51,291 bases of DNA from a virus. How positions within the stretch are numbered: the stretch's first letter is position 1; each line of letters begins with the position of its first letter. The stretch spans positions 1 through 51,291 of IMG/VR virus record IMGVR_UViG_3300037424_000161; one strand, 5' to 3'. A program made the position numbers and the translations under genes. This document shows, in pieces, positions 5,203 through 34,340 of this stretch. The notes under the pieces were generated by a model. The model was not told where the DNA came from. It worked only from the letters and a program-made list of their open reading frames with translations, and ran no database searches.

Positions 5203-6743
5203 TGGATCCTCAGATTAGTGAAATCTTAGTAAACTGCTCTATTTCCACCAGGATGATTGCTAAGACTTTCTTTCCTGAGCGATTCACCTTACCATTTGCA
5301 GAAAATATCCACGGGCCTATCTTCGATCTCATAGATGGACCCGATCAAAAAGTCGCCATTGCAGCCCCTCGAGGCTGGGGTAAGACCTCGGTAGTCGGTC
5401 TCGCACTAATGGCCCGTAAGATCATGTTTCGTCAGACTCCCTTTATCATCTACATCAATAAATCTGAAACTGCTGCCATCATGCAGACGGACAACTTACG
5501 TCGTGAACTTGTAACCAACCGTAACATCAAAGGATTCTTCGGCTCTGTTAAAACTCGCACCGCTGGCGATGACGAGATTGAAGAACAATTCTCAAAGAAA
5601 GCTTGGCTAGCCTATGATACCTTTGTACTTCCTCGTGGGGCAGGTCAGCAGGTTCGAGGTGTGCTCTTTAAAAACTCTCGTCCTGGCCTTATTGTCATTG
5701 ATGATCTGGAAGATCCAGACAAGATCGAGAATGAAGAAATACGAAAAGCTTGGTATCAGTGGCTATACGCTGATGTCATAAAGGCAGTTCCTCAAATCGG
5801 ACCTGAGGCGGCCAACTGGAAGATTGTCTACATTGATACACTGAAGCATGAAGACTCGGTTCTCCAAAAATTATTAGATTCGCCAGAGTGGAAATCTGTT
5901 CGTCTCGAAGCTTGTGACAACGACTTTCACTCGACCGCTCCTAACTTCATCTCTGATGAACAGATAATGAAGGAGTGGAATCACCACGTAGAGGCAGGTC
6001 AAACTGACGTATTCTTTCGTGAGTTTCGTAACCTACCTATTTCGACCAAGGATTCGGCCTTCCGCCAGGAATATTTCCATTACTACAACCTTCCTCATGA
6101 TCGAGGGAAGGGTGAACAGGACATTGACAAACTCGACGTAGACATTCAGGCAGATCAGAACATTGAAACAGTAGTCATCCTCGATCCTGCCAAGACTGTC
6201 AAGATTCACTCTGCTGAATCAGCTATCATCGGTATCGGTATTGACCTAACGAGTGCTCGTCTCTACATCCGTGATGCAGTATCCGAAAAGATGTATCCAG
6301 ATGAAATCTACGATGCCTTATTCGGTATGGCCACTCGTCTCGGTGCGAAGGTAATCGGAATTGAGGAAACATCTCTCAACGAGTTTATCAAACAGCCTAT
6401 CAAAAATGAGATGTTTCGCCGCGGGACATTCTTTGAGTTAGTATGGCTCAGTCCTAGAGGTGGCAACAAGAAACAAGAACGTATCAAGGAGCTAGTCCCT
6501 TACTATCGAGGTGGTTGTATCTACCATAATGCCTCTAATGTGGCTATCAAGAAACTTGAGCAACAGTTGCTGATGTTCCCTCGATCAGCTCTATGGGACA
6601 TGATGGATGCTGAAGCTTACATCATTGAGATGCTTGAACTCGGAGAACGATACTTCAGCCCTAAAGAAAATCCAGATGATGTTGAGTCTGAGTATAAGGA
6701 ACTATCTTATGATAAACCAGTTGAAGACTGGAGGTACATCTAA
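5199..6743 (+). CDS. terL: Terminase large subunit
   Basis: 514 aa. Walker A-like IAAPRGWGKTS and Walker B-like GLIVIDDLED. C-terminal nuclease-sized domain. Confidence 0.9.
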   Translation: MMDPQISEILVNCSISTRMIAKTFFPERFTLPFAENIHGPIFDLIDGPDQKVAIAAPRGWGKTSVVGLALMARKIMFRQTPFIIYINKSETAAIMQTDNLRRELVTNRNIKGFFGSVKTRTAGDDEIEEQFSKKAWLAYDTFVLPRGAGQQVRGVLFKNSRPGLIVIDDLEDPDKIENEEIRKAWYQWLYADVIKAVPQIGPEAANWKIVYIDTLKHEDSVLQKLLDSPEWKSVRLEACDNDFHSTAPNFISDEQIMKEWNHHVEAGQTDVFFREFRNLPISTKDSAFRQEYFHYYNLPHDRGKGEQDIDKLDVDIQADQNIETVVILDPAKTVKIHSAESAIIGIGIDLTSARLYIRDAVSEKMYPDEIYDALFGMATRLGAKVIGIEETSLNEFIKQPIKNEMFRRGTFFELVWLSPRGGNKKQERIKELVPYYRGGCIYHNASNVAIKKLEQQLLMFPRSALWDMMDAEAYIIEMLELGERYFSPKENPDDVESEYKELSYDKPVEDWRYI

Positions 6744-7207
6744 TGGCTGACAATCCTCAGAAATGGTCTGCCTACACAGCTGCAAAGACTGCATTGTTTG
6801 CAGCTACAGATTTAAAGAACTTGACGACTGGATCTGGTAAGCTATCAACGGCTTCAGCCATTAACAATGCAGCCGGAGATCAGCTAGCCGACCTCGAACT
6901 CTTAATTGATTTAGCAACTGCTGCAGCTGCTGGTGGCTACATTGCTATCTGGTTTATCAAAGCTCTCGATGCATCAAACTATGGAAGCGGCGCTGACGCA
7001 GTATTCCCAGCTAGACCCCCGGATGTAATTATTCCCGTGCGTTCGACCACGGATGACTCACAGGTCGTTACCATTGCTGGTGTACTGTGGCCTCAGGGGT
7101 TATTCAAAGTACTATTTCAGAATAACTCTGGTCAGACAACAACTAACACAGATAGTCTAACTCAAGTTTATTTCCGTTCCTATAACAATAATATAGTGAC
7201 TCCATAG
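6743..7207 (+). CDS. Hypothetical structural/accessory protein
   Basis: 154 aa; start overlaps the terL stop; first of four genes between terL and portal. Confidence 0.55.
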   Translation: MADNPQKWSAYTAAKTALFAATDLKNLTTGSGKLSTASAINNAAGDQLADLELLIDLATAAAAGGYIAIWFIKALDASNYGSGADAVFPARPPDVIIPVRSTTDDSQVVTIAGVLWPQGLFKVLFQNNSGQTTTNTDSLTQVYFRSYNNNIVTP

Positions 7208-11727: not shown

Positions 11728-12612
11728 ATGAGTACTACAAGTCAAGATGTTCAGAATGAACTGGCTGCAATGAACAAGTCACTCACTGAACAAATTACTG
11801 TTAGTGAACTGGTCGAGGATAAAAAAGATGACAAACGCACTGATGTTACAGATACAGTCGCTGAACCTTCATCTACTGACAAGCCTGCAGAGAAAGTACG
11901 TGAGACACCAGCTGATAAGGTACGCGAAACTCCATCCGACGTGGATGATGTCGTTGTAGAAGATAAGAAAGAACCAGAACCAGAACCTGACGAGAAAGAC
12001 AAAACCATAGCAGATCTTCGAGCTAAACTGGCCGAGTCCGAAGCTAAACCAAAAGTTGAGACTAAACCTGAAGTCAGGTCTGAGGTTAAGGAAACCACCC
12101 CTGAACCTATCGAACAAGACTTCATCGGTGAACTAGATGTTGATGAACTTACGCGCGACCCTAAGGAATTCAACAGGCTCCTCAACAAAGTCTATCGTCA
12201 GGCATCAAAGGACACTCGGGAAAGTGTTATGAGCACTCTCCCTGATATAGTAAAATCTAACATCGCAATTATGGAGGATCTTAAGAAGGCCAGTGAGCAA
12301 TTCTATACAGATAATTCTGACCTAGCGCCTTTCAAGAAAGTTGTAGCGACTGTGTTTGAAGAACTAGTTGCTGCTAACCCTAACAAACCTTATGGTGACC
12401 TTATTAAAGATGTCGGACCTGATGTGCGTAAGCGATTGGGCCTCCCAGAAAAGACATCTTCTAATAAACAGCCTGAGGACAAATCTAACAAATCAGATAA
12501 TCCTCCCAGACTACCTCATAAGGGTGGTAAGGCTGGACGTGTAAGTGATACACCATCAGTTAACCCTCTCCAATCTGAAATTGGGGAGATGAACAAAACC
12601 CTAGGGAGATAA
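11728..12612 (+). CDS. Scaffolding-like protein
   Basis: 294 aa, highly charged (K/E/D) low-complexity sequence with tandem KVRETP[AS]D. GGAGG upstream. Sits between portal and capsid. Confidence 0.55.
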   Translation: MSTTSQDVQNELAAMNKSLTEQITVSELVEDKKDDKRTDVTDTVAEPSSTDKPAEKVRETPADKVRETPSDVDDVVVEDKKEPEPEPDEKDKTIADLRAKLAESEAKPKVETKPEVRSEVKETTPEPIEQDFIGELDVDELTRDPKEFNRLLNKVYRQASKDTRESVMSTLPDIVKSNIAIMEDLKKASEQFYTDNSDLAPFKKVVATVFEELVAANPNKPYGDLIKDVGPDVRKRLGLPEKTSSNKQPEDKSNKSDNPPRLPHKGGKAGRVSDTPSVNPLQSEIGEMNKTLGR

Positions 12613-12617
12613 CCTTT

Positions 12618-13070
12618 ATGGGACTTGAACAGAATAACGAACAGCACTACCGGGAGGTGGTCGATAAGTTCGTTGACATCAATGAGGATTACCAGATGTC
12701 AACGAGGGACTATGTGGTTCGCCCCTCGGCTCATGACCCTCTCAATCAGGCAATCGCTCTTACATTGCCCCCTGTGGCAGAAGCAGTTGGACGCTTCTAC
12801 TCCATCATTTCTCGTGGAGCTGACGCAGTCAATACTATCACTATTCACGACAGACATGATTCAGAATGCTGGACTGCTGACATTGTGATGAATAGCAAGT
12901 GCGACCGTGTACTTATGTACAGCGATGGACTCTGCTGGCATGCACTAACATCCGAATCAGTTGGTGATTGGCCTGGTCAGACTACCAGGGCTCCTGGAAC
13001 TGCGAGACCTACTACACTGGCTCCTACTACACTAGGGCAAACAACTGAGGCGCCAACTACTGCTCCTTAG
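12618..13070 (+). CDS. Hypothetical head-associated protein with C-terminal PTT tag
   Basis: 150 aa ending GQTTRAPGTARPTTLAPTTLGQTTEAPTTAP (nt 12975-13067). Located directly upstream of the capsid gene. Confidence 0.55.
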   Translation: MGLEQNNEQHYREVVDKFVDINEDYQMSTRDYVVRPSAHDPLNQAIALTLPPVAEAVGRFYSIISRGADAVNTITIHDRHDSECWTADIVMNSKCDRVLMYSDGLCWHALTSESVGDWPGQTTRAPGTARPTTLAPTTLGQTTEAPTTAP

Positions 13071-13081
13071 TGGTTATTAAC

Positions 13082-13106
13082 AGTTTGCTTAAAATTCAAA
13101 CGAACT
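13082..13106. repeat. 25-bp palindromic motif, copy 6
   Basis: agtttgcttaaaattcaaacgaact; 19 nt upstream of capsid ATG 13126, with GAGG in between. Confidence 0.85.
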
Positions 13107-13125
13107 TTTTCACGAGGTAACTAAT

Positions 13126-13279
13126 ATGTTTCTTGGAATGAGAGGTAATGACGACTGGGTGGTCGATCAGCGACCACTCAATTGGAGACAACAAATCCTA
13201 TATCTTTACCCTAATGGGATGGCTCCATTAACTGCCATTCTGTCTATGATGGGATCTGAGAAAGTAGATGATCCTCAGT
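13126..13279 (+). CDS. Major capsid protein, exon 1
   Basis: Translates MFLGMRGNDDWVVDQRPLNWRQQILYLYPNGMAPLTAILSMMGSEKVDDPQ. This resembles the N-terminus of HK97-fold podovirus capsid proteins, but the frame stops 6 codons later unless spliced. Confidence 0.7.
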
Positions 13280-14135
13280 CAATTAGAGGCTGCTTGTAGA
13301 GGAAACTTTACAATGAAAACAGTGAGAATTGCTGGAACTCCCTTAGAGCCTTCATCACCAGAGAGTGAAAGTATGCAGGATTGGGAAATCAGCAGCGAAA
13401 GCTACATGAACCTACAAAGATTTGTAGACAAAACAGCCTATTCGGTAGGCGCTATTCTAGGCGATGGTAGTATGAGATACGTTCCTAGTTATGGAAATGG
13501 TTCTTGGTATTCGATTGAGTTATCTTGTATGGATATAGAAATTATCAAGAGATTTCAGTATGAGATGCATACTACTTTTGGTAAGGACTATACTATTCAT
13601 ACTAAGAAACTCGATAGTGGAGTAGACTTCTACACTATAAGAACTAGCTCAAAGCATATTCATCATTACTTCTATAATCTTACCAACGGAAAGACTGAGA
13701 TTCCAGTGGAGATTATTAGAAGTTCAGATGATGTTAAGAAAGCTCTTGTAGCTGGTTTAATGGATACTGATGGAACTGTTAAACTTAACGAAACCTGGAA
13801 TGGATCAAAAACTAACAAAAATCCTAGATGGCAACTTGGCTTTGCTAATACTGAGATTAAGATAGTTGAATCGCTAGCGTCGCTACTAACCTCTATGAAG
13901 GTTAAAGTTGGTAGTATGCAAACTACGAAAAGAGGGAGTTATAGGACTATCTATAATATCTTTCCCAACATTCGTAGCTTTATTGATGCTGGATTCTATT
14001 TTCAGGCTCAGAGAAAGCAAAATAGGCTTAATGATTATCTTGTTCATGTATCTGGTTCAGAGACTATGCACACTGCATCCGTGACATCGGATGATGATAT
14101 AGTCCGAGCTTAGGTAAAAGCCTAAGAACTACTCG
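13280..14135 (+). mobile_element. Probable group I intron carrying a LAGLIDADG homing endonuclease
   Basis: 856 nt separate two capsid fragments lying in different frames. The exon ends in T (13279) and the insert ends in G (14135). Joining gives DDPQ-F-HWWTQ and a 1326-nt (442-codon) ORF. Confidence 0.65.
13313..14113 (+). CDS. LAGLIDADG homing endonuclease (double-motif)
   Basis: Two LAGLIDADG-type motifs, VGAILGDGSM and VAGLMDTDGT. The ORF is open from 13268; the start is uncertain (ATGs at 13268, 13313 and further downstream). Confidence 0.8.
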   Translation: MKTVRIAGTPLEPSSPESESMQDWEISSESYMNLQRFVDKTAYSVGAILGDGSMRYVPSYGNGSWYSIELSCMDIEIIKRFQYEMHTTFGKDYTIHTKKLDSGVDFYTIRTSSKHIHHYFYNLTNGKTEIPVEIIRSSDDVKKALVAGLMDTDGTVKLNETWNGSKTNKNPRWQLGFANTEIKIVESLASLLTSMKVKVGSMQTTKRGSYRTIYNIFPNIRSFIDAGFYFQAQRKQNRLNDYLVHVSGSETMHTASVTSDDDIVRA

Positions 14136-15307
14136 TTCATTGGTGGACCCAGTCACAGACAGCTGTAGCTGGTCTCGTTCAGGGTGTTTATACCTTACCT
14201 GATTGCTCTGTTGCATACGTTACTGGTGGAGTGGCCGGGACTGTTCTCTATGTCCTCATAACTACCGCCCTCGGTAATCGTATCCGGGAAGGCCATCAGA
14301 TCCTCCTTCGTTGCTCTACTGACTGGTCAGTAGATGTAGTTGGTAAGGTCACCGGCTGTGCTCGTGGTGGAGTTAATACAGTCCTTGCAGTCAAACTGCT
14401 TGAAGCTGACGATAACTCTATTACGATTCCTGCCCATGACCTGAGTGATTGCGACACCTTTGGCATCATCGGTAACATCAACCCTGAGGGTGGTGAGATG
14501 CCTGATGCAATCGCTCTGAATCCTACTAAGGTATACAACTACACCCAGATCTTCCGTACTCCACTTTCCATTACTCGTACTGCCAAAAAGACTCGTCTTC
14601 GCACTGGCGATCAGTATCAGAAGGCTAAGTCTGAAGCACTCGAGATGCACTCTTGGGAAATGGAGTTGGCGTTCCTCTGGGGTATTCGCACTGAGAACAT
14701 CGGTGACAATGGTAAGCCTGAACGCACCACTATGGGTGTGATCAACTTCATTCGTCAGTTTGCGGCGACAAACTGCGATGATTACACGCTCAATCCCACC
14801 TACGCTGGTGTAGCTTGGCTCACTGGTGGTGAAACCTGGCTTAAGACCATGCTAGAGCAGATCTTCCGCTTCGGTGCCGAAGAGAAACTCTGTCTCTGTG
14901 GATCCGGCTTCTTGCTCGGTATCGACGCTCTCGCTAGTGTCAATGGCTATATCAACCTTTCCGTCGGTCAAAAGGCTTACGGAATGCAGATTCGCTCGTG
15001 GCTTACGCCCTTCGGCACTATTCACATGAAGACTCATCCACTGTTCAGCTTTGCTGCTACAACTCGTAACATGGGAGTTATTCTTGAGCCGAAGGAACTT
15101 ACCTACCGCTACATTGACGATACTTCGTTCTACAGCGAAACGTCTAACAAGACTCATCCTGAAGGCTATGGCAATCGTCGACTTGATGGTACTAATGAGG
15201 AGTTCCTTACTGAGTGTGGACTTGAGTTTGGTCTGCCTCAGAAGTGCGCTGTGCTCAACGGTGTTGGTCTGGATAGTGCTTTAGCGGCGCCGACTACGGC
15301 TCCGTAG
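14136..15307 (+). CDS. Major capsid protein, exon 2
   Basis: The frame is open from 14126, well upstream of the ORF-track GTG 14231. Begins (F)HWWTQSQTAVAGL, contains NYTQIFRTPLSITRTAKKTRLRTGD, and ends in a short PTT tag ALAAPTTAP. Confidence 0.75.
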
Positions 15308-15364
15308 GCTAACCTCCTACAGACCAGCTAACGACTGGAGAGGTAGTGCCCATTCTGCCTCTCC

Positions 15365-15389
15365 AGTTCGTTCAAAATTTCAACGATCT
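15365..15389. repeat. 25-bp palindromic motif, copy 7
   Basis: agttcgttcaaaatttcaacgatct; 9 nt upstream of ATG 15399. Confidence 0.85.
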
Positions 15390-15398
15390 TGGTGACAT

Positions 15399-16121
15399 AT
15401 GGACTTACGTGAGATTCGAACAAAGTTCCGTGACCTCTCTGGTCGCTACGATCTCGTCAATGATGACTTCAGTGATAACGGGGCTGACTTCTTCATTAAT
15501 GAGGCTAGTAAGTGGCTTGACAAGACCGTTGAGACAACTAAGTCCTGGGGCTCGTATATGATAGAGAGACCTACAGGAGTCTGGTATGTGAAGTTTCCAC
15601 TCGCCCGTGCTATCAAAGAAGTATGGATTTCAACCGTCGAGGGTAGATGGCAACTTGAGAAAATCCGTCTACAGGACCTCATAGCATCTTATTTCTCTGG
15701 CACTCCTGCAACCCTAGTCAATGGGTCACCTGAGTACTATAGTCCATTAGTTACCAGACATATACCAGAAACTATTACTCCAGTCCAGTTAGCAGCCTTT
15801 GCTGCCTATGTAGGTGTAATCCCTAGTATGGCTCATGACTACAACGCAATCATTATGTCTGCTCCAGTTGATCAAGCTACATTGGTTGAAATAGTTGGAT
15901 TATTTTACTCTATGGAGCTGACTGCAGACAAGGATGAAAACTACTGGAGTAAGACTAACCCACTAATGTTAATCGAAGCCACTATACGGCAGACTTATAT
16001 TCTTAGTGGTAATAAACCTATGTTGGATGTACTAGATCGTGGAATAGATGGAGACCTTACTCGACTTGATAAGGATCTGGTCGAACAGATCTCTGCCGAA
16101 GTTGATGAGATGGAAGGGTAA
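15399..16121 (+). CDS. Hypothetical structural protein (head-tail adaptor/tail tubular A-like by position)
   Basis: 240 aa, first gene after the capsid. Preferred over the overlapping ORF 15346..15561, which runs through the palindrome. Confidence 0.55.
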   Translation: MDLREIRTKFRDLSGRYDLVNDDFSDNGADFFINEASKWLDKTVETTKSWGSYMIERPTGVWYVKFPLARAIKEVWISTVEGRWQLEKIRLQDLIASYFSGTPATLVNGSPEYYSPLVTRHIPETITPVQLAAFAAYVGVIPSMAHDYNAIIMSAPVDQATLVEIVGLFYSMELTADKDENYWSKTNPLMLIEATIRQTYILSGNKPMLDVLDRGIDGDLTRLDKDLVEQISAEVDEMEG

Positions 16122-21151: not shown

Positions 21152-21588
21152 TGTCTATAATGTTGAGAGTTGATCAGATCCCTGCTACATGGAACGCTAT
21201 CAAGTACGCTGCGGCTTCAGCTAATATGAATAAGATTAGTAATGAAGAGCTGCCAGTCTACCTTAACAAATTACTAGCATCATTACTTAACGAAACCTCT
21301 CAATGTTTCATTAGGTTAGATGAGGAGAATCAGCTCTCAGCCATTGCTCTCACTCGGATTAATCAAGATGCAACGAGTGGTGAAAGGTCGCTCTTCATTA
21401 TCTGTCTTTACTCATTTAAGTTTGTCGAAGAAGGACAATGGAAGACTGATATGGAAGATCTTAAGTCATTCGCTAGAAAGAGTAACTGCAAGCGAATAAC
21501 TTTCTATTCTAACAATGAGCGAATCTACGAGATGGCTAACACGCTAGGATTTACAGAATATTACCGTTGCTTCACAATGGATTCATAG
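21151..21588 (+). CDS. Hypothetical protein
   Basis: 145 aa; TAATG overlap with the upstream gene. Confidence 0.5.
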   Translation: MSIMLRVDQIPATWNAIKYAAASANMNKISNEELPVYLNKLLASLLNETSQCFIRLDEENQLSAIALTRINQDATSGERSLFIICLYSFKFVEEGQWKTDMEDLKSFARKSNCKRITFYSNNERIYEMANTLGFTEYYRCFTMDS

Positions 21589-22521: not shown

Positions 22522-23709
22522 ATGCCACAGACTTACGGTGTAGCCCCTGGAACTGGAGGACTTGAGGTTCCTATGGGAGGCGGTGGTAACTTTCTCACTA
22601 ACTTATTTCAAAACAAGATGTTCTTACAATTCCTCGCAGCTGCAGGGCAGGACATCTCTGGAGGAGGAAAGAATTTAGGTGGAGCTATTAACCAAAATAT
22701 CTCCTCACAGAATTACATGAAGTTGTTGAGTCAGATGTTGGGTGGGGATATTCCTGAAGGAGGAGTTATCAAGATGGGTCCTGAGGGAATGGATATTAAG
22801 GTACCGAAGATGGGTACTTTAAGTGGGCAGCCCTCTCAAGGTACATCAGTAGGTAACGCAAACCCTTTCGTTTCTAGCCAGTCAGGTTTCTCAGCGTCTG
22901 ACCTCGCTGGCGTAAATCCTGAGATGATCAGTCAGGCGCTGCAGCTTAAACAGAATCAGCAGTCACTGGAACAGAGACGAGTCAGTGATGTAATGGATGC
23001 TATGTATAAAGGTGGAATGCTCAGTGTGGCTGAACGTGGAGTAGCTGTAGATGAAGCCGGAATTCCGATAAGAGAGACGGCTGCTGAAACAGATAGACTT
23101 AACGCTGTTAGACAGATGCTAAGTGAATTTAGAGATGCTCCTATTGAAGTTCCTGGACTTGGTAAGGTTGACCTCAAGACGTGGGACGCTTTGGATACTA
23201 AGACTAAGGCATACTCATTCTATGTGTTTGACACCAAAGTAAACAAAGGTGCTCCGCTCACATATACAGCTTGGGAGAAGCAGACTGATCCACTAGCTAT
23301 CGAACGATACTATGAGAGATCCAAAACTGATCCGGCCTTCAAGAAATTCTTGTTTGAATATGCTAAGGCTGGATCTACTAACATTAACCTTAGTCCGGCA
23401 GAGAGGGCACTTGGAACTGCATCTGTCGAACCAAGAGTTCAGTTGAAAGATCCTGCGTTGATCTCTAGATTGATAGGTGATAAGTTAGACTCTCTCGAAT
23501 ACAAGATGTTAGCAGCTAGTGATCCTGAAAAAGCTGGACAATACAGAATGTCTGTCTCTAGAGATCTCATCGAGAGCATGATCACTACAGGTGGTGGTAG
23601 GATAGATCCAGATACTAAACCCTATCTTGATAAAGATGGCAAGACAGGTGTGTGGACAGTCATATGGCCAGATGGAACTAAGGAGACTATTCGTCATGCC
23701 CTTAAGTGA
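22522..23709 (+). CDS. Internal virion protein-like (by position)
   Basis: 395 aa with a Gly/Gln/Ser-rich N-terminal half. Precedes the giant gene. Confidence 0.5.
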   Translation: MPQTYGVAPGTGGLEVPMGGGGNFLTNLFQNKMFLQFLAAAGQDISGGGKNLGGAINQNISSQNYMKLLSQMLGGDIPEGGVIKMGPEGMDIKVPKMGTLSGQPSQGTSVGNANPFVSSQSGFSASDLAGVNPEMISQALQLKQNQQSLEQRRVSDVMDAMYKGGMLSVAERGVAVDEAGIPIRETAAETDRLNAVRQMLSEFRDAPIEVPGLGKVDLKTWDALDTKTKAYSFYVFDTKVNKGAPLTYTAWEKQTDPLAIERYYERSKTDPAFKKFLFEYAKAGSTNINLSPAERALGTASVEPRVQLKDPALISRLIGDKLDSLEYKMLAASDPEKAGQYRMSVSRDLIESMITTGGGRIDPDTKPYLDKDGKTGVWTVIWPDGTKETIRHALK

Positions 23710-26700
23710 TCAAGATACGTTAATTCTTCCATTTGAGCAGGGTGGTAAGGCTAAGGAAAAAGGACAGGCGTCAAGCTCATTGATTCTTCCTTTCGAGCGA
23801 TCTGAACCCACACCTATTGTTCCCTCTCAGCCTTCAGTTAGACCTAACCTTCCTTATGGTCAGGCTACTAGTATATCAGCAGGTAAACCTTATGAGCCAA
23901 GCTTAGCTCAGAATGTAGTAGGTGGAATTGCTAAGTTGTTAGGTGTACCTTATGATCCAGCATTGGGATTAGATCCTGAGCGAGCGAAAGCTGACGCACT
24001 CGTTCAGAGGAAGGCTAACGAGAAAGGAGTTCCTCTTTATCAATATAGAAATTCACCTGAGATGTTAGAACAGTTTGTAGGTGAATTCGGTAACATGATG
24101 ACGTTAGGTGCTGCACCTACGTTACGTAAAGCTATATTGGGAACGGAGGAGGTTAAGCCTTCAGGTTCGGCAGGAATTATAGGTGCTCAGCTTGGATCTC
24201 TTGCCGGACTAATTACAGGCCCTGGTAAGTGGGCAGGGATGGCCTTAGGCGGAGCTATTAGATTCCTTCCTGGTGCTACACAGGAAATGCAACTCTCACA
24301 TAGGATCATTGTCGAAGCTCTACGTGATTCAGCTACACTCGGCACAGCTATGGGTGCCAGCGCTCTCGGTGACGCAGCATCACAGGTAACTTTTAGTGAT
24401 GCGGCTGGAGTCATCTGGGACAGGATGAAGAGTGGTGCAATGACTGGAGCATTGTTCGGTGTAGCGAAAGGAATGTTTCCTAAGGAAGGATGGGAGAAAG
24501 GAGCTAGGTTACTTAGCGGATTAGTAATGCTTAATGTGCAGAGGAAGATTGAAGGAGGGTGGGAGAAGAATCCTTTCGCTGATAGACCGGTTGGTGAGGT
24601 ACTATTTGATATAGGTTTGGATGCATTCTTCTTATGGAAAGGGCTGCCAAAGAATCAGTTTGACTCGCTTGTGAAAGATGTGAGTGATAATGTAGACAGA
24701 GTGGTAGCTACTAATCAGAAGATAGAGGGTCTTAAGGATGTACCTGAAGGTGAGCTGAAGAAGGCAAAAGAGAAAAAGTTAGCTATCGAACAGAAGCAGA
24801 ATCAACTGGAAGTTGAACAGGCTGCGAAGAAGGCAGCTGCAGCAGCTGAAGCGGCAGAGAAAGCTAAGGTTAAGGCTGAGGAAGCAGCTAAGGCAAAGGT
24901 TAAGAAAGCACCGGAGACAGAAGAAGAACGTAAAGTTAGGATGGCCAAGGTTAGGGCTGCTGGGAAAGTGAAGGTACCTACTGAGGAAGCTAAACCTATT
25001 GAACCAGTGGTCACACCAGTTGAGCAACCTAAGCCCGAGTTACTTCAGACTGAAATACCTAAGGTAATGGAACAAGCTGAAGTGCCAGCTGCTGAACCTC
25101 CAGTTAAGAAACTAACTAAACCTCAACAAGCTAGAGTTGATAAAGTTAAGTTGCTATCAGCTGAGGGTAAAGATCCAGGACAGATTGCCTTTAAGATGAA
25201 TATGAAGGAGGCAGAGGTTAGATCCATACTGGGAATGGAACCTCCTAAGTTAATATTACCTGGAGAGAAAGTTGAACCTGTTAAACCAAGTGAGAAGATA
25301 GACTATTTAAGTGAAGGACCTAAAGCTAAGGTTGAACCAAAAGTTCGTTCAAAAATCGAACAAACTCCTCCAACTCCATCTGAACCATCGACAGGTCTAG
25401 TCGTAACTCCTTCTGATATGAAAGCGCTCGAAGCAAAGTTTGGTCCCAACTGGGATGAATTGAGTGATAAGGAGATAGGGGATTTCTTAGCGACTAAACC
25501 TACTGAAGTTAAACCAGCTGTTGAAGTACCTCTTGTTGAAGAACGCTCCGATATTGAAAAGTACTACAACAAAGACATAGAGAAGATCACTCAATCAGAG
25601 TTCGATAAATACTTCGATCTAATGGAAGCTGGTGAAGTAGGTGTTAAGACTGAACCAATAACTAATGTTGATCTACAAACCGGAACTCCGGAGCCGGCAG
25701 AATTAGTTGGTGATGACTCCATCTATAGTGCTGATAAGGCAGCTACAGACGCTCGAACTAAACTATATCAGAATAATAAAGCAGTAGCGAATAACATAAG
25801 TGAGTTACTATCTCGTAATCCAGTGCTGCCTAAAGACCCAGGCGCTACAGCTTGGAAACTCTTCAATGATGTAAACAGATGGTTACATGGAGAAGAGGTT
25901 GATATAGCTGGAACGAGAGGATTCTTGAGTGAGTTGGCAGCGAGAGCTGATGAATTTAAGGATCAATTCATAGGTGAAGATTATCCTCAGTCATTCTATG
26001 ACTGGAAGGAGATGATTAGTGATGGAGCGAACTGGGCGAGAAAAGTAGATCGTACAAAAATTGAACGAACTGGGCAGACACTCTATTCCGGTGTAGATCC
26101 TTTTAAACTCTACGAAGGTCTCCAGAATTGGTTTTCTCAGCTTAGGAAAGATGCAGAGAGGAAATTACCTAATAAGGCAACAGGTGAGCAGATATCTAAT
26201 ACGTTGAGAAAGGGAGTGACACAGGATGAGTGGAATAGAAGTGGATTGAGTAAGTTGTTAGTGGCTGGGCAGAAGTATACGAAAGAGGAAGTGATAGGGA
26301 CTATTGATAAGAATCTGCCGGTGTTGAAGGATGTGGTGCTTGATAAGGAAGCTAATATAAATGAAGTTGAACATTTCAGAGCTAAAGCTAGAGAGATAAA
26401 AGAGGTACTTGATCAGGATCCTACTAACGTAGAGTTACGGCAGCAATGGAAAGATGCTATTGGTAGGATAGATGTAGCCCTTATAGAGAGAGATAGAATG
26501 GGCCCTAAATTCTCTTCCTACGTCGAGCCTGGAGGGAGTAATTATAAAGAGTTGTTTGTGACGGCTCCGTTAGATAGAAGTAGATACATAGAGTTTGAGA
26601 AGGCTCATCCTCAGCCGGAATACTATTCTAGTGAACTGTACTATGATAATCTGAAGAACTCCTGGATTAAAGATAATACTTGGCAAGACGGTCACCCTGA

Positions 26701-29700
26701 CTACTCAGACATAGAAAATCCTATCGTTAGACTTAGGTTTAATGATCGCACTGATGCACAAGGTAATAAGGTCCTCTTCATCGAAGAGCTCCAACCACCT
26801 AACCCTGAGAATCAAGCTAAAATGCCTCCTGAGTTTGTCAAAAGGTGGCGTGAGATAGGAATGAAACGTGCTATTAAATATGCTATAGATGGAGGATATG
26901 ATAGAGTAGCGTGGACTACTGGGGAGATGCAAGCTAATCGCTACACACTGGAAAGACAGGTTAATAGAATAGATTGGGCTAGAAGAGAACCAGATGAAGG
27001 AATGAGGAAGGGGGCTGAAGGATATTATCTTATCAATGTTACTACAAAAGATGGTGGAGTGATTGATTACTATCCTAAACCAAATGAGCTTTCAGAATTA
27101 GTAGGTAAAGAGTTAGCTGAAAAAATCTTAAGTTCAGATAAGAAGCTCGGTATTATAGAAGGGGTTGATCTTAAGATTGGTGGTCAAGGGATTAAAAAGA
27201 TCTACGACCAAGACCTTCCCAATGTAGCTAGGAGATTAGGAGGGAAGGTTGAGGAGATAAAATTACATCTTGGAAAGGATATTGACGTATCTAAAATAGT
27301 TGAGTCTGATAATCTTTGGTATGTAGATCAGCATCCATTCCCATATCCTACTAGAGAGGCTGCTATTAGAGCCTTATCTGGAGACATTACTAGACCAAGT
27401 GAATCATCTGTCCCTTCCTTCTCCCTCTCTCCTTTCAAACAATCTCCTTACCAACCGACACTTTATAGTGGGATACCCGTAGACAAGATCAAGCAAACTA
27501 TCAAGGACATTTTCTCTCGGCCTAACATAGAAAAAGAAGACGTCCCCGACACTCTCTCAGGTGCCCTCGCTGCCGGTCGCCGTGGATTTAAGTACATGGA
27601 AGATGCTAGAAAGATGAAGGAGTTTAATGTACTTGAGGCGGCAAAGATCACACAAGAGACGTTTACGAGAGCGGCTATTGAAAGATCAGGGAATATTGCT
27701 AGAGACATTATAAATAAGTTAGGCAACAAAGGAATAGATGTACTTCAGTCCATGTATCTTTCTCGTGGAGGACATCCTCGAGCCACTAATATGCTCGAGC
27801 AGATGAGTAAAGAGGTTTACAATGGACTAAGTAGAAATGAACTGAAGATATTTGATACTGTCGATCTAGCTCGTAGAGTACTCTCTATTGCGAACTATAA
27901 GACCAAGAAACAGTTTAAGCCACCTAAGGATATGTCGGTAGAGACATCAGCTATTATTGATACACTTTATAGATATAAGTCTGTTAATGGACTGGAGAAC
28001 TTAACTGATGAACAGGTGGCAAAGATCGAGCGCTCTCATCAAGCCTATGTAGATTGGATGAAGAAGGCTCTCAGTGATATGTATAATGAGGGACAGTTAA
28101 TCACTGAAGAAGAGTACAATAACTTAGTCATTCATAACTATCGTAAGTTAGGAAAGGTCAATGAAGTTTACGATCGAAGCTATCGGGTTGAGATAGGTGG
28201 GAAGAAAAGAACTATTTACGATTCAGGAGTTGAGTCACTTCAGAGAGGTAAGGACACAGATATACTTGAGCCCAGCTCAAAGGTGATGGCACTTGAGGTG
28301 TTTAATAGAGCTTATGGTAGGATAATGCATAACAAAGCTAACCTTGAGTTGCTTAAGTTAGCTAGGGATGTTAAAGATAATCCCTTTGTAAGGTTCAAGG
28401 AGAGTAAGGAGGATAAGATTCCTCGGGGATTTCAAAGGTTCTTTGTGTATGAGAAGGGACAGCGTAAAGCTATCTATCTATCTCCTGACATGGCCAAGGA
28501 ATGGCTAACTAGTTCACCTGAGGTAAGTTTTAGATTCGCTAAGGTGATGAGATTCCTAAGTGGAACTCCAATAGTTCGTACCTTTGCAACTGGCATTGAG
28601 TGGGGATTTGCACTGGCTAATGTGCCTAGGGATGTAATGCATCTTTGGTATGCGGCTAGACAGTTCACAGATGGTAGGTGGGAAGGAGTGTATAATGCTA
28701 ACCTTCCAGTGTTTGCACTACAGCTAGGTAAAGATGTACAAGAGACGTTCAGTGATGCTGCATTGCGTAAGGGATTGTATGATGACTATATGAAGTACGG
28801 TGGAGGGATGGACCTGCTCACATTGCAATCTAGGTTGTTCGTGAGAGGTCGTCACCTTGATTCATCTGTGAGTAAGTACGAAGACTTCCTAGGTTACTTT
28901 GGAGTTACATCTGAGTTAGCTACACGTCTAGCTATAATGAACAGGGTTATTAAGAATAGAGCAGCTGAACGAGGGATTAGTTATGCTGAGGCTAGAAAGA
29001 ATCCTGATATATTGAAGGATGCTACATTCTCAGCTCGTGACTATATGGACTTTAGTCAGGGCGGGAGTATGATTAAGGCTATGGATAATGTTATTCCTTA
29101 TTTGAATGCCAGCATTGTAGGTACACGTAGCTTGATGAGAGCATTCAAACCTGGCAGTGGTACAGCCCTCACATCATCTTGGAAGTTAGCTCAGTTTGGA
29201 CTGCTAGTTGGAGGAGCTACAGCTTATTTCTACAAAGAAAATCCTGAGACAATGGAAGCACTTAAAGGTAACATAGCTGCACAGAATAACTTCGTTATTC
29301 CGCTCGGTGATGAGTATGGATTTGAGGATCAGGAAGGACAGATGAGATACCCTTTCCTCAAGATCCCTCTCGATCCTGGACAGAAGTTCTTCAAGACATT
29401 CTTTGAAGCAGCTACGATGAAATGGTTAGGGTATGATGTAGATATAGATCGTGTAACTGGATCACTTAAGCAAATGTCTCCAGTGTCAGGTACTGAGTTA
29501 CCTCCAGTTCAGGCAGCTATACTTGGTTATGTTACTAATAAGGATTTCTGGACTAACGAAGACATATGGAAGAAGACACCTAAGCCACTTCCATATCCGA
29601 TGAGTGCTGAGGAATTTATCCCTGGGCAGACAGGTGAAGTTTACACAGCGATAGGTGAGAAGACTGGGCTGTCGCCTGAACGGATTAAGTATGCTGCTGA

Positions 29701-30271
29701 GGAATTAGTTACATCAGGAAGTATGTGGTCTTACCTTGGAGGTAAGGCTTACTCATCAGTGTTTGGTGATCTACCGAAGGAAGAGAAGGAACAGCATCTT
29801 GCGATGACACTATCGAAGATCCCTGCAATTAATAGATTCTTCGGTGTTACTAATCCTTACTCAAAATATGCAGCTAGCATAACTGAAGCTGAGGCCGAGA
29901 GTGCTACAAAAAGGTGGATTGAGACAAGGGAATTAGATGCTAGAATCAATGGATACCTTTATAAAGGTAATGTGAAGAAGAGTGAGATCTTTGATTATAT
30001 CAGAGCGCAGAAAGATCCTAACACACAAGAGAGATTGTTCGAGCGCTATGTATTAGCAGAAGGTGTGAAGAACTTACCTAATCGTAGCTTCTGGATGAGG
30101 TTGCAGAATCTAACAACTGAGGCTAGAGCTAAGGTATTTGTAGACAGAATGAATAAATCATCTGAAGCTGAGAAGGTTCAGCTGAACAAGGAAGCTGGAC
30201 AAGCAGCTGCAATAGGTGGAATACTGTCAGATGATTTCTGGGTTGAAGTAGCTAAGTTGAGGCGGAAGTAG
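23696..30271 (+). CDS. Giant (~2191 aa) internal/ejection-type polyvalent protein
   Basis: ORF open from 23627; ATG 23696 overlaps the upstream stop by 14 nt. Features: duplicated LILPFE motif, Gly-rich hydrophobic segments, an A/K/E low-complexity stretch, and a conserved-looking block NPIVRLRFNDRTDAQGNKVLFIEELQ. Confidence 0.7.
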   Translation: MPLSDQDTLILPFEQGGKAKEKGQASSSLILPFERSEPTPIVPSQPSVRPNLPYGQATSISAGKPYEPSLAQNVVGGIAKLLGVPYDPALGLDPERAKADALVQRKANEKGVPLYQYRNSPEMLEQFVGEFGNMMTLGAAPTLRKAILGTEEVKPSGSAGIIGAQLGSLAGLITGPGKWAGMALGGAIRFLPGATQEMQLSHRIIVEALRDSATLGTAMGASALGDAASQVTFSDAAGVIWDRMKSGAMTGALFGVAKGMFPKEGWEKGARLLSGLVMLNVQRKIEGGWEKNPFADRPVGEVLFDIGLDAFFLWKGLPKNQFDSLVKDVSDNVDRVVATNQKIEGLKDVPEGELKKAKEKKLAIEQKQNQLEVEQAAKKAAAAAEAAEKAKVKAEEAAKAKVKKAPETEEERKVRMAKVRAAGKVKVPTEEAKPIEPVVTPVEQPKPELLQTEIPKVMEQAEVPAAEPPVKKLTKPQQARVDKVKLLSAEGKDPGQIAFKMNMKEAEVRSILGMEPPKLILPGEKVEPVKPSEKIDYLSEGPKAKVEPKVRSKIEQTPPTPSEPSTGLVVTPSDMKALEAKFGPNWDELSDKEIGDFLATKPTEVKPAVEVPLVEERSDIEKYYNKDIEKITQSEFDKYFDLMEAGEVGVKTEPITNVDLQTGTPEPAELVGDDSIYSADKAATDARTKLYQNNKAVANNISELLSRNPVLPKDPGATAWKLFNDVNRWLHGEEVDIAGTRGFLSELAARADEFKDQFIGEDYPQSFYDWKEMISDGANWARKVDRTKIERTGQTLYSGVDPFKLYEGLQNWFSQLRKDAERKLPNKATGEQISNTLRKGVTQDEWNRSGLSKLLVAGQKYTKEEVIGTIDKNLPVLKDVVLDKEANINEVEHFRAKAREIKEVLDQDPTNVELRQQWKDAIGRIDVALIERDRMGPKFSSYVEPGGSNYKELFVTAPLDRSRYIEFEKAHPQPEYYSSELYYDNLKNSWIKDNTWQDGHPDYSDIENPIVRLRFNDRTDAQGNKVLFIEELQPPNPENQAKMPPEFVKRWREIGMKRAIKYAIDGGYDRVAWTTGEMQANRYTLERQVNRIDWARREPDEGMRKGAEGYYLINVTTKDGGVIDYYPKPNELSELVGKELAEKILSSDKKLGIIEGVDLKIGGQGIKKIYDQDLPNVARRLGGKVEEIKLHLGKDIDVSKIVESDNLWYVDQHPFPYPTREAAIRALSGDITRPSESSVPSFSLSPFKQSPYQPTLYSGIPVDKIKQTIKDIFSRPNIEKEDVPDTLSGALAAGRRGFKYMEDARKMKEFNVLEAAKITQETFTRAAIERSGNIARDIINKLGNKGIDVLQSMYLSRGGHPRATNMLEQMSKEVYNGLSRNELKIFDTVDLARRVLSIANYKTKKQFKPPKDMSVETSAIIDTLYRYKSVNGLENLTDEQVAKIERSHQAYVDWMKKALSDMYNEGQLITEEEYNNLVIHNYRKLGKVNEVYDRSYRVEIGGKKRTIYDSGVESLQRGKDTDILEPSSKVMALEVFNRAYGRIMHNKANLELLKLARDVKDNPFVRFKESKEDKIPRGFQRFFVYEKGQRKAIYLSPDMAKEWLTSSPEVSFRFAKVMRFLSGTPIVRTFATGIEWGFALANVPRDVMHLWYAARQFTDGRWEGVYNANLPVFALQLGKDVQETFSDAALRKGLYDDYMKYGGGMDLLTLQSRLFVRGRHLDSSVSKYEDFLGYFGVTSELATRLAIMNRVIKNRAAERGISYAEARKNPDILKDATFSARDYMDFSQGGSMIKAMDNVIPYLNASIVGTRSLMRAFKPGSGTALTSSWKLAQFGLLVGGATAYFYKENPETMEALKGNIAAQNNFVIPLGDEYGFEDQEGQMRYPFLKIPLDPGQKFFKTFFEAATMKWLGYDVDIDRVTGSLKQMSPVSGTELPPVQAAILGYVTNKDFWTNEDIWKKTPKPLPYPMSAEEFIPGQTGEVYTAIGEKTGLSPERIKYAAEELVTSGSMWSYLGGKAYSSVFGDLPKEEKEQHLAMTLSKIPAINRFFGVTNPYSKYAASITEAEAESATKRWIETRELDARINGYLYKGNVKKSEIFDYIRAQKDPNTQERLFERYVLAEGVKNLPNRSFWMRLQNLTTEARAKVFVDRMNKSSEAEKVQLNKEAGQAAAIGGILSDDFWVEVAKLRRK
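25342..25366. repeat. 25-bp palindromic motif, copy 9 (intragenic)
   Basis: agttcgttcaaaaatcgaacaaact inside the giant CDS, encoding VRSKIEQT. Confidence 0.8.
26047..26071. repeat. 25-bp palindromic motif, copy 10 (intragenic)
   Basis: agatcgtacaaaaattgaacgaact inside the giant CDS, in the same codon phase as copy 9, encoding DRTKIERT. Confidence 0.8.
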
Positions 30272-34315: not shown

Positions 34316-34340
34316 AGTTCGTATAAAATTTGAACGAACT
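34316..34340. repeat. 25-bp palindromic motif, copy 13
   Basis: agttcgtataaaatttgaacgaact. On the minus strand it is followed by GGAGACAT-ATG of the polymerase (34307). Confidence 0.9.

Follow-up and report, generated by a model that had tools for sequence, protein, structure and literature searches.

Phage group I introns with an embedded homing endonuclease are represented by T4 td/I-TevI and by the intron endonuclease of ΦPA3 gp210, where homing occurs in mixed infections, translation of the endonuclease must not disrupt ribozyme folding, and a role in phage competition is considered possible (PMC3984707, PMC11620839). According to a review, the GIY-YIG, HNH, PD-(D/E)xK, and EDxHD endonucleases predominate in phage introns, LAGLIDADG is less usual, and overlap of the ORF with the ribozyme core is documented (PMC3984707, PMC11620839). 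In mycobacteriophage LittleE (Cluster J), splicing of a capsid gene intron was shown by RT-PCR and N-terminal protein sequencing, and the authors described the intron type as "unclear, most likely group I" (PMC3706429).

The window analyzed here is the whole stretch of 51,291 nucleotides: a phage genome of ~51 kb with its major capsid gene split by an 856-nt insert at 13280-14135. Very probably, the interruption, which falls inside the Phe52 codon, is a mobile group I intron with an I-DmoI-like two-motif LAGLIDADG gene. Unlike the window, the T4 td and ΦPA3 systems have other endonuclease families, and their host genes are metabolic or transcription genes, not capsid (PMC3984707, PMC11620839). 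The locus is organized as follows:

13126..13279, + strand: major capsid protein exon 1, codons 1-51 and base 1 of the Phe52 codon
13280..14135, + strand: group I intron, 856 nt (RF00028 sub-threshold matches, covariation, same-site relatives)
13313..14113, + strand: LAGLIDADG homing endonuclease ORF, 266 aa, two motifs (Pfam PF14528, I-DmoI match, 28 homologues)
14136..15307, + strand: major capsid protein exon 2, from the last two Phe52 codon bases to the stop codon at 15305-15307

Exon 1 has a GAGG ribosome-binding site at 13114-13117. The ORF at 13126..13299 reads ...NGMAPLTAILSMMGSEKVDDPQ, then SIRGCL, and stops at 13297-13299. The exon-2 frame is preceded by a TAA at 14123-14125 and is open from 14126, with GTG 14231 as the first listed start codon. 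In both respects the sequence agrees with the first-pass annotation, which had placed the first stop six codons past exon 1. Joining T13279 to T14136, as proposed there, gives 1326 nt and reads ...DDPQ-F-HWWTQ...; the 442 codons then counted are 441 codons plus the stop. The insertion point lies between bases 1 and 2 of the Phe52 codon, and the predicted RNA sequence of the joined exons is ...CCUCAGU/UUCAUUGG... (a slash marks the junction here and below). This junction is unique: when both boundaries are slid by +1 or -1 nt, the invariant Phe52 becomes Ser or Val.

The joined product aligned without gaps to more than 100 uninterrupted homologues of 431-441 aa, with 78-86% identity and 98-100% coverage. 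The junction, VDDPQ/FHWWTQ, sits in an invariant motif where F52, W54, and W55 are unchanging and no alignment gap occurs. The exon-1-encoded N-terminus agrees column by column with 22 uninterrupted homologues, and residues 52-83, coded by the 32 codons upstream of GTG 14231, are kept in frame in homologues. The joined product is SU10_MCP (Pfam PF17236) in one stretch, residues 36-428 (115.9 bits against a cut-off of 24.1, E 3e-33), and it matches PHROG 1328, major head protein. The alignment to intron-less homologues had been suggested as a check; besides being gapless, it extends to a solved structure, as the major capsid protein of PDB 9in6 matches across the junction (E 3e-41), with its residues 5-62 aligned to query residues 3-60. 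GC content is 0.377 in the insert versus 0.50 in exon 2. That the gene in fact encodes one SU10-type major capsid protein of 441 aa, made from a putatively spliced transcript, is well supported.

Over 11813-15613, the window has the same sequence as a second, independent assembly (L109, Logan SRR12684511). The same sequence was assembled twice, in contigs of ~50-51 kb, which implies an abundant, replicating phage. A DNA search of cultured-phage genomes retrieved no close relative, only a distant capsid match and a fragment of the KIL intron.

At the RNA level, comparison with relatives indicates that the 856-nt insert is a group I intron, its structure shown by covariation. The covariation alignment (A2) contained 17 distinct introns, the window plus 16 metagenomic relatives, and supports these elements:

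13276..13292, + strand: P1, exon CAGU 13276-13279 with internal guide GCUG 13289-13292
13294..13313, + strand: P2 hairpin, GAAA tetraloop 13302-13305; 8/8 pairs compensatory, Rfam alignment agrees
13320..13326, + strand: P3 5' strand, partner 14069-14075; 100% paired
13330..13394, + strand: P4-P5-P5a-P5b domain (covariation and Rfam alignment)
13330-35/13389-94, + strand: P4, invariant
13340-42/13383-85, + strand: P5, 2/3 pairs compensatory
13349-54/13374-79, + strand: P5a, 6/6 pairs compensatory
13355-58/13365-68, + strand: P5b, 2/4 pairs compensatory
13395-96 with 14055-56, + strand: P6, 1/2 pairs compensatory (CG to GC)
13400-05 with 14048-53, + strand: P6a, 5/6 pairs compensatory
14057..14105, + strand: catalytic core 3' half, best-matching part of the Rfam hit plus covariation
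UCA at the start of that block, + strand: J6/7, matching Rfam consensus UCAGAGACUA
14060 and 14062-66, + strand: P7 5' strand, A14061 bulged; P7 99% paired
14069-75, + strand: P3', pairing with the P3 5' strand
14076-93, + strand: P8 hairpin, 4/6 pairs compensatory
14094-99, + strand: J8/7, matching Rfam consensus GAUAUAGUC
14100-05, + strand: P7 3' strand; P7 99% paired
14106-08 with 14132-34, + strand: P9.0, 3/3 pairs compensatory, enclosing P9
14109-15 with 14120-26, + strand: P9 hairpin, 7/7 pairs compensatory

Together, P1-P9, P9.0, and the P3/P7 pseudoknot form a 67-pair structure. In the alignment, 95.9% of cells were paired versus 31-45% in slid controls, a contrast inflated by the structure having been hand-drawn from the same sequences; the count of compensatory pairs is affected far less. 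Compensatory changes on both sides were found in 45 of the 67 pairs, and none of 500 shuffles reached any observed measure.

The two predicted splice sites lie at P1 and P9.0. The 5' splice site comes directly after U13279, which forms a wobble with G13289; a fifth pair, C13280-G13288, is possible. Compensatory change is seen at three of the four P1 pairs (CG/AU/GC at the first), 16/17 sequences have the U·G, and the guide shifts in step with the exon codon (CAG, ACG, GAG, CGG) among relatives. The 3' splice site follows P9.0 at the terminal G14135, invariant in 17/17 sequences. The first-pass annotation had proposed the short P1 with its U-G wobble, the U before the 5' splice site, and the final G from the window; the P1 pairing covaries in relatives.

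Inside the intron, the P2 region holds the exon-1-frame stop UAG 13297-13299, the endonuclease GAGG 13299-13302, and the endonuclease AUG 13313. P3 shows three compensatory pairs (CAGUG/CACUG, UAGCG/CGCUA, CGGCG/CGCCG), and the P4-P5-P5a-P5b domain has an A-rich 3' bulge at 13369-73. The 5' strands of P6 and P6a span 13395..13405 and their 3' strands 14048..14056, leaving a P6a loop (L6a) of ~640 nt with the body of the endonuclease ORF inside. The best-matching stretch of the Rfam hit within 14057..14105 is UCAGAGACUA...GAUGAUAUAGUCC, and the endonuclease stop UAG 14111-13 lies within the P9 5' strand. Two other pairings were discarded. The partial Rfam alignment pointed to AGCGAAAGCU (13395-13404), a local hairpin, as P6, but it is not conserved, and relatives read AGCGAAAACU. 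The long-range pairing UGAACC 13407-12 / GGUUCA 14056-61 is missing in relatives such as L083, and the covarying P6/P6a was adopted.

Rfam at gathering thresholds gave no match in the whole window, and the intron was seen in E-value mode only. In this mode, RF00028 was the sole Rfam family matched in the whole window, at 13930-14126, with 25.6 bits against a curated cut-off of 50 (E 0.016 for the whole window), thus failing the formal test; a second partial match, P1-P6 at 13270-13480, had 14.9 bits. The Rfam search suggested by the first-pass annotation thus pointed to group I as the only RNA family, at a score below the cut-off. The low score is explained by the ~640-nt ORF in the P6a loop, which the model cannot bridge. 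L100, a relative that has no ORF and whose core is near-identical, reached 65.3 bits, above the cut-off, and at that cut-off RF00028 misses every ORF-bearing member of the intron family. Such introns are therefore probably under-counted in viral metagenomes.

The intron ORF matched Pfam PF14528 with 29.2 bits (cut-off 22.5). It is full length and carries AILGDGS as motif 1 and GLMDTDGT as motif 2, confirming the two-motif LAGLIDADG assignment made from the letters. Among 33 homologues, the acidic residues of the motifs are conserved: GDG occurs in 32 (one GNG), and every sequence has [TS]DG or an equivalent acidic residue. Of the solved structures, I-DmoI is the best match to the protein (E 4e-5, ~26 bits; query 41-167 against chain 11-133). 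The ORF occupies intron nt 34-834, so that 94% of the intron is coding and both ORF ends double as ribozyme core; such an overlap had been anticipated, given how little non-coding intron remains. Third-codon-position conservation is 0.76-0.78 in the ribozyme-overlap zones versus 0.62 in the central ORF; by this measure, both ORF ends are under dual constraint, coding and ribozyme. RNA helices may also shape the protein, as in the putatively P8-driven covariation Ser...Asp versus Pro...Gly of the endonuclease tail.

The endonuclease start is likely ATG 13313, which we prefer over ATG 13373. The latter, after AAGGAGG, is the conserved start in one subgroup (L084, L086, L087, L102). In the window's subgroup, the frame is open from ATG 13313 and the downstream ATG is often lost (L081, L082).

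Introns at the same site were found in relatives L081-L091, L093, L094, L097-L099, and L101-L108. The search for endonuclease homologues gave 28, and all eight contigs looked up had exon 1, the endonuclease gene, and a truncated capsid ORF. The best 80 SU10-type capsid loci in IMG/VR were all without the intron. The intron-less consensus at the insertion site, GATGATCCTCAGT/TTCATTGGTGGAC, is identical to the window's joined exons. From this patchy distribution, the element looks mobile, presumably by homing. The predicted cleavage-site sequence for the endonuclease ORF 13313-14113 is GTAGATGATCCTCAGTTTCATTGGTGGACC, and the L095-type site sequence is GCAGGGTTCAATTGGTTG.

Related units also split capsid genes of two other families. 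The same ribozyme core with homologous endonucleases (26-41% identity) was found in SU10_MCP, Phage_capsid_2, and PHROG 9953 capsid genes, and no sequence similarity is detectable among these three. Outside SU10, three protein-coding host genes were found, each of them a capsid gene; those of L092 and L096 had no Pfam match and were identified with PHROGs. We only tentatively suggest a single intron and LAGLIDADG endonuclease lineage specialized in major capsid genes, with extreme compaction and a ribozyme derived from, or recently sharing ancestry with, the tRNA-Leu(UAA) intron; as a whole, this proposal is rather doubtful. If true, the lineage could serve as a weapon when phages co-infect, its target being the gene each tailed phage has to express most strongly.

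At the mechanistic level, the intron in the late transcript would fold into a canonical group I core, with P1 presenting U13279·G13289. Free guanosine bound in P7 would attack the bond following U13279. P9.0 would then bring the terminal G14135 into the guanosine site, and exon ligation would give the mRNA of the 441-aa capsid protein. On unspliced RNA, ribosomes from exon 1 should halt at UAG 13297-13299, short of the core, and the endonuclease would be translated from a start within P2, with its body in the P6a loop and its ends read from the P3-P6 and P6a-P9 bases. During mixed infection, intron-less capsid alleles would be cleaved by the enzyme near GATGATCCTCAGT/TTCATTGGTGGAC, and repair off the intron-bearing allele would copy the intron in. 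The exon junction, the covarying RNA fold, the intact endonuclease motifs, and the patchy distribution are seen directly in the comparison; splicing, endonuclease activity, homing, and any protein cofactor dependence are what we infer from sequence. Alignment and covariation together support the first-pass reading, in which a LAGLIDADG-bearing group I intron has its junctions at U13279 and G14135 and the capsid protein has 441 aa, with splicing as the predicted step.

We considered a genuine split, in which two capsid gene fragments flank a free-standing endonuclease gene and are made as separate polypeptides with no RNA splicing. Gene callers do annotate this locus and those of all relatives as three separate ORFs, and free-standing endonuclease genes are commonly found between phage genes. 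However, exon 2 is without a start before GTG 14231, yet the 32 codons upstream are conserved and in frame with homologues, and the boundaries are base-exact, a U standing just ahead of the 5' splice site and a G closing the intron. Moreover, the ORF flanks make up a full group I core that covaries, among its helices P1 with the exon and P9.0 adjoining the terminal G, and a free-standing gene would have no reason to keep these. We regard a split gene as very improbable. Even less credible is another kind of intervening element. An intein is excluded by the differing exon frames and by the exon-1 frame stopping 6 codons into the insert. A group II intron would be at odds with the lack of a reverse transcriptase and of any group II match in Rfam. 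For translational bypass, 856 nt is far above known ribosomal bypasses, such as the 50 nt of T4 gene 60. The group I hallmarks are all present, and these three elements were rejected on frame, size, and missing hallmarks.

Decay of the group I intron, with splicing poor or lost and the genome defective or handicapped, is improbable too, if slightly less so than the split gene. The L9 loop is AAAA in the window versus a GAAA tetraloop in 16/16 relatives, and there is one mismatch each in P5a (U13352/C13376) and P6a (C13402/U14051). Against decay, the remaining helices are all intact, the endonuclease ORF keeps its full length and its two catalytic motifs, the capsid frame is intact over the junction, and the duplicate assembly implies a replicating phage. 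The window ribozyme may still be weakened or protein-dependent. Overall, we retain the mobile group I intron in the Phe52 codon as the preferred reading.

Gene-caller output for this locus and for at least 16 related contigs is an orphan of 57 aa, a protein labeled "WhiA-like" or hypothetical, and a capsid protein lacking its N-terminus. The comparison instead gives a comparatively validated phage group I intron with LAGLIDADG, which interrupts an essential late gene at the most conserved motif, overlaps extensively with its own ORF, and has a core common to a tRNA-Leu intron. The intron family offers material on how translation is reconciled with ribozyme folding and on how such elements move between unrelated capsid genes.

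Among the known systems compared, the tRNA-Leu(UAA) intron of L100 (1244-1511) is near-identical to the window in P3-P4, P4'-P6, J6/7-P7-P3'-P8, and J8/7-P7'. Both have the same compact architecture, with P2 and P9 hairpins and no P7.1/7.2. Removing the L100 intron restores tRNA-Leu(UAA), split between U34 and A35 in the anticodon loop. Unlike the window, it is 268 nt long without an ORF, lies in a tRNA gene, and has a larger P5 extension and a different 3' region past P9. The anticodon-loop introns of tRNA-Leu(UAA) are classically subgroup IC3 in cyanobacteria and plastids, and a P5a/P5b extension with an A-rich bulge, as in the window, is atypical of minimal IC3 introns.

In the cultured Pseudomonas phage vB_PsyM_KIL1 (NC_030934), the virion-module genes for portal and terminase carry group I introns and are annotated as joined CDS. 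These introns score 59.9 and 68.9 bits, above the Rfam cut-off, and across P4-P5-P4' the portal one shares 78% identity with window 13327-13399. They differ from the window in their host genes, in a 3' core half that is not alignable, and in that no ORF is annotated in the 316-nt Rfam match of the portal intron.

For the protein, I-DmoI is a monomeric two-domain LAGLIDADG endonuclease from a Desulfurococcus 23S rRNA intron (PDB 1b24, 2vs7). Its alignment to the window protein spans motif 1 and reaches motif 2, with weak similarity. The window protein is ~70 aa longer, and its N- and C-terminal tails are dictated by the ribozyme sequence.

Finally, LittleE is like the window in its ~820 bp insertion in the major capsid gene, the U before the 5' site, the G at the 3' end, and a LAGLIDADG-type ORF (PMC3706429). 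That ORF lies on the bottom strand and encodes an I-CreI-like protein of 177 aa, whereas the window ORF is on the sense strand, two-motif, I-DmoI-like, and overlaps the ribozyme core (PMC3706429). The LittleE host gene encodes an HK97-like capsid with a delta domain, and the window host is SU10-type (PMC3706429). The two are likened by these features, and the RNA structure of the window rests on covariation. Phage capsid-gene introns carrying LAGLIDADG were thus already known from mycobacteriophage LittleE, and the window adds a well-supported further case of this established type of selfish element, not a new kind of system.

At the level of the capsid gene, a T13279-T14136 join yields an ORF of 1326 nt (441 codons plus stop, reading ...VDDPQ-F-HWWTQ...), and the joined exons are predicted to encode a complete capsid protein. 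The ATG at 13126, with GAGG eight bases before it, starts an ORF that reads ...LYPNGMAPLTAILSMMGSEKVDDPQ, continues as SIRGCL and stops at UAG 13297-13299. The exon-2 frame is open from 14126, and GTG 14231 is the first start codon in the mechanical ORF list. The first-pass annotation had described a first ORF ending six codons past the junction, a capsid resumption in another frame upstream of GTG 14231, a T13279-T14136 join and a DDPQ-F-HWW signature, and all of these held. The insert (13280-14135) is 856 nt long, with a GC content of 0.377 vs. 0.50 in exon 2. The same phage was also assembled independently (L109, Logan SRR12684511), and that contig is identical to the window across 11813-15613, so the interrupted gene is not an assembly artefact.

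The joined product matched Pfam SU10_MCP (PF17236) over residues 36-428 in one stretch (115.9 bits; cut-off 24.1), PHROG 1328 'major head protein', and a capsid protein of known structure, 9in6 (E 3e-41), where one aligned block, query residues 3-60, crosses the junction. A search of 5.8 billion proteins retrieved over 100 that are uninterrupted and 431-441 aa long (78-86% identity, 98-100% query coverage). When 22 of them were aligned with the joined product, the junction was free of gaps, and F52, W54, and W55 did not vary. Shifting both intron boundaries one base either way turns Phe52 into Ser or Val; therefore, the splice junction is fixed to the base, after U13279 and after G14135. This result corrects the annotation of the capsid gene.

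Rfam at curated thresholds gave no match anywhere in the window. In E-value mode, RF00028 was the only family match in all 51 kb (13930-14126, 25.6 bits; E 0.016 on the whole window and 3.7e-4 on a 1.2-kb region), so the group I family proposed at first pass was the sole one found, but below the curated threshold. The match fits J6/7-P7-P3'-P8-J8/7-P7'-P9 very well (UCAGAGACUAUGCACACUGCAUCCG...CGGAUGAUGAUAUAGUCC...CUUAGGUAAAAGCCUAAG), and a second, truncated one at 13270-13480 covers P1, P2 (GAAA loop), P3, P4, P5, and the beginning of P6. Separation of the two core halves by ~640 nt explains the low score.

For covariation, we aligned 16 distinct same-site relatives with the window intron, each reduced to a mini-intron by removal of the L6a loop (alignment A2). 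Relatives came from two sources. The endonuclease protein has 28 homologues (41-100% identity), and all eight of their contigs that were inspected share one layout: an exon-1 ORF of ~55 aa, then the endonuclease ORF, then an SU10_MCP ORF that is truncated. A P7-P8-P7' core pattern matched 5 loci in viral and 12 in metagenome sequences. The full group I structure was written onto A2 and base pairs were then counted.

Helices of the window intron (A2 structure; 5' strand/3' strand)
P1: 13276-79/13289-92
P2: 13294-301/13306-13
P3: 13320-24 and 13326 with 14069 and 14071-75
P4: 13330-35/13389-94
P5: 13340-42/13383-85
P5a: 13349-54/13374-79
P5b: 13355-58/13365-68
P6: 13395-96/14055-56
P6a: 13400-05/14048-53
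P7: 14060 and 14062-66 with 14100-05
P8: 14076-81/14088-93
P9.0: 14106-08/14132-34
P9: 14109-15/14120-26

Standard pairs filled 95.9% of 1135 cells vs. 31-45% with the 3' partners slid by 1-3 columns, a percentage favoured over the slid versions since the structure was derived from the same sequences; the compensatory counts are much less affected. Both sides change in 45 of 67 pairs, and none of 500 shuffles reached any of the five observed pairing measures. Compensatory pairs were seen in P1 (3/4), P2 (8/8), P3 (3/6), P5 (2/3), P5a (6/6), P5b (2/4), P6 (1/2), P6a (5/6), P8 (4/6), P9.0 (3/3), and P9 (7/7); P4 is invariant, and P7, with five of its six pairs invariant, also lacks compensatory change. 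The P1 between CAGU 13276-13279 and GCUG 13289-13292, suggested at first pass, is supported by covariation, its guide tracking the exon codon (CAG, ACG, GAG, and CGG with GCUG, GCGU, GCUC, and GCUG, respectively). The group I splice-site rules proposed with it were also obeyed: 16 of 17 sequences retain the U·G pair at the 5' splice site, and G14135, the last intron base, is invariant among the 17. In P9.0, the three bases preceding this terminal G pair with the three following P7'.

The joined product, the Rfam match and the covariation thus support the original reading of a group I intron with a LAGLIDADG ORF in the capsid gene. Judged from its sequence, the insert is a group I intron, and very probably a functional, spliced one. 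Confidence in this particular copy is lowered by the Rfam score failing the curated cut-off, by one mismatch each in P5a and P6a, and by the AAAA L9 loop (14116-14119) of the window and the identical L109, which is a GAAA tetraloop in all 16 relatives and may weaken a tertiary contact; we nevertheless consider a decaying copy very unlikely. A truly split capsid gene has a similarly slim chance.

The endonuclease ORF (13313-14113) leaves only 33 and 22 flanking non-coding bases, because its body fills the P6a loop and both its ends are translated ribozyme. An overlap of the core with the ORF ends had been one of two options put forward at first pass, and P3-P6 and P6a'-P9.0 do lie inside the ORF. 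Translation of P3-P4-P5-P5a/b-P4'-P6 gives the N-terminal residues (...IAGTPLEP...QDWEISSES...), that of P6a'-J6/7-P7-P3'-P8-J8/7-P7'-P9.0 gives the C-terminal ones (...SGSETMHTASVTSDDDIVRA), and the stop codon sits in the P9 5' strand. Tail residues 255-260 are Ala-Ser...Asp/Glu or Ala/Thr-Pro...Gly in every homologue alignable there, a count that omits four truncated or divergent tails that were not scorable. Two residues of this stretch covary because their codons form a base pair in P8 (14076-14093), a protein-level imprint of an RNA helix. Together with third-codon-position conservation of 0.76-0.78 in the overlap zones vs. 0.62 in the central ORF, this shows signs of a double constraint. 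ORFs reaching into core sequences are a recognised arrangement, with expression said to be tightly controlled (PMC3984707). Here, the ribosome-binding site (GAGG 13299-13302) and AUG 13313 are both within P2, and in a second subgroup the ORF begins at the equivalent of 13373, where P5b supplies a strong AAGGAGG site ahead of it. Translation in the exon-1 frame ends at 13297-13299, and within 2-10 codons in every relative read, so exon-1 ribosomes are kept out of the core; that this termination feeds re-initiation at 13313 is speculation.

The two-motif LAGLIDADG endonuclease was also borne out: the 266-aa protein scores above the Pfam cut-off for LAGLIDADG_3, and among solved structures it is closest to I-DmoI, a monomeric enzyme with two domains (E 4e-5). 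Both motifs keep their acidic residue (GDG, [TS]DG) across 33 homologues except for one GNG (motif 1) and one AEG (motif 2), which speaks for an active enzyme. The gene is uninterrupted in all 80 best SU10-type capsid loci of IMG/VR, and with the strict core pattern just two viral contigs of SU10 type were seen to carry the intron. Across 75 intron-less alleles, the site consensus, GATGATCCTCAGT followed by TTCATTGGTGGAC, equals the joined exons of the window exactly. This patchy distribution and the intact site are signs of mobility, and the DNA of the gene is most conserved around the site, as would be expected for a homing site. In three loci (L091, L094, L108), the intron lies one base downstream, past both U bases of the Phe codon instead of only the first (13279/13280), and P1 is re-tuned (GGAGUU/GACUCC) in a way that keeps U·G at the splice site.

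The window is a phage genome of ~51 kb with large terminase, portal, capsid, DNA polymerase, primase, ligase, and other functions. Two further genes were observed.
23627-30271: very large ORF (2214 aa, TTG start) downstream of the head module; sole match weak, to a PHROG with unknown function
34340-35671, minus strand: 443-aa protein adjoining the DNA polymerase gene; N-terminal ParB-like nuclease and C-terminal DNA methyltransferase regions (PHROG matches)

The same core, with homologous endonucleases (26-41% identity), occurs in capsid genes of two other families.

Host genes of related introns (IMG/VR)
L095, 3300036917_000006: Phage_capsid_2
L092, 3300037506_000013: PHROG 9953 major head
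L096, 3300009873_000143: PHROG 9953 major head

The L095 target (...GCAGGGT before the site, TCAATTGGTTG after it) resembles an SU10-type target, that of L083 (...CCTACGT, then TCAATTGGTGG), which points to transposition into a look-alike site. In L092, the capsid-gene region has another group I match, without an ORF (6574-6801, minus strand; 36.1 bits, below cut-off), a few hundred bases upstream of the intron with the endonuclease, and this gene may hold two introns.

A core near-identical to that of the window was found in a 268-nt ORF-less intron (L100:1244-1511; JAEIGA010000188.1, 87 kb) that passes the Rfam cut-off (65.3 bits). Its excision in silico restores a tRNA-Leu(UAA) gene that it interrupts between U34 and A35, the classical tRNA-Leu intron site; at least six tRNA genes form the surrounding array. 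The family is well resolved, with extensive ORF-ribozyme overlap, a tRNA-Leu intron link, and an apparent preference for capsid genes.

Among cultured phages, Pseudomonas phage vB_PsyM_KIL1 (NC_030934) has terminase and portal introns (21195-21417 and 22876-23191) that both pass the Rfam cut-off, and the P4-P5 domain of the portal one is 78% identical to window 13327-13399. In mycobacteriophage LittleE, an intron of 819 bp that contains a LAGLIDADG ORF lies in the capsid gene, with splicing shown experimentally (PMC3706429), and the LittleE paper also mentions lactococcal phage Tuc2009 as having an intron in its capsid gene. Since phage capsid-gene group I introns are already documented, the window intron does not challenge current understanding and is a previously undescribed example of a known phenomenon.
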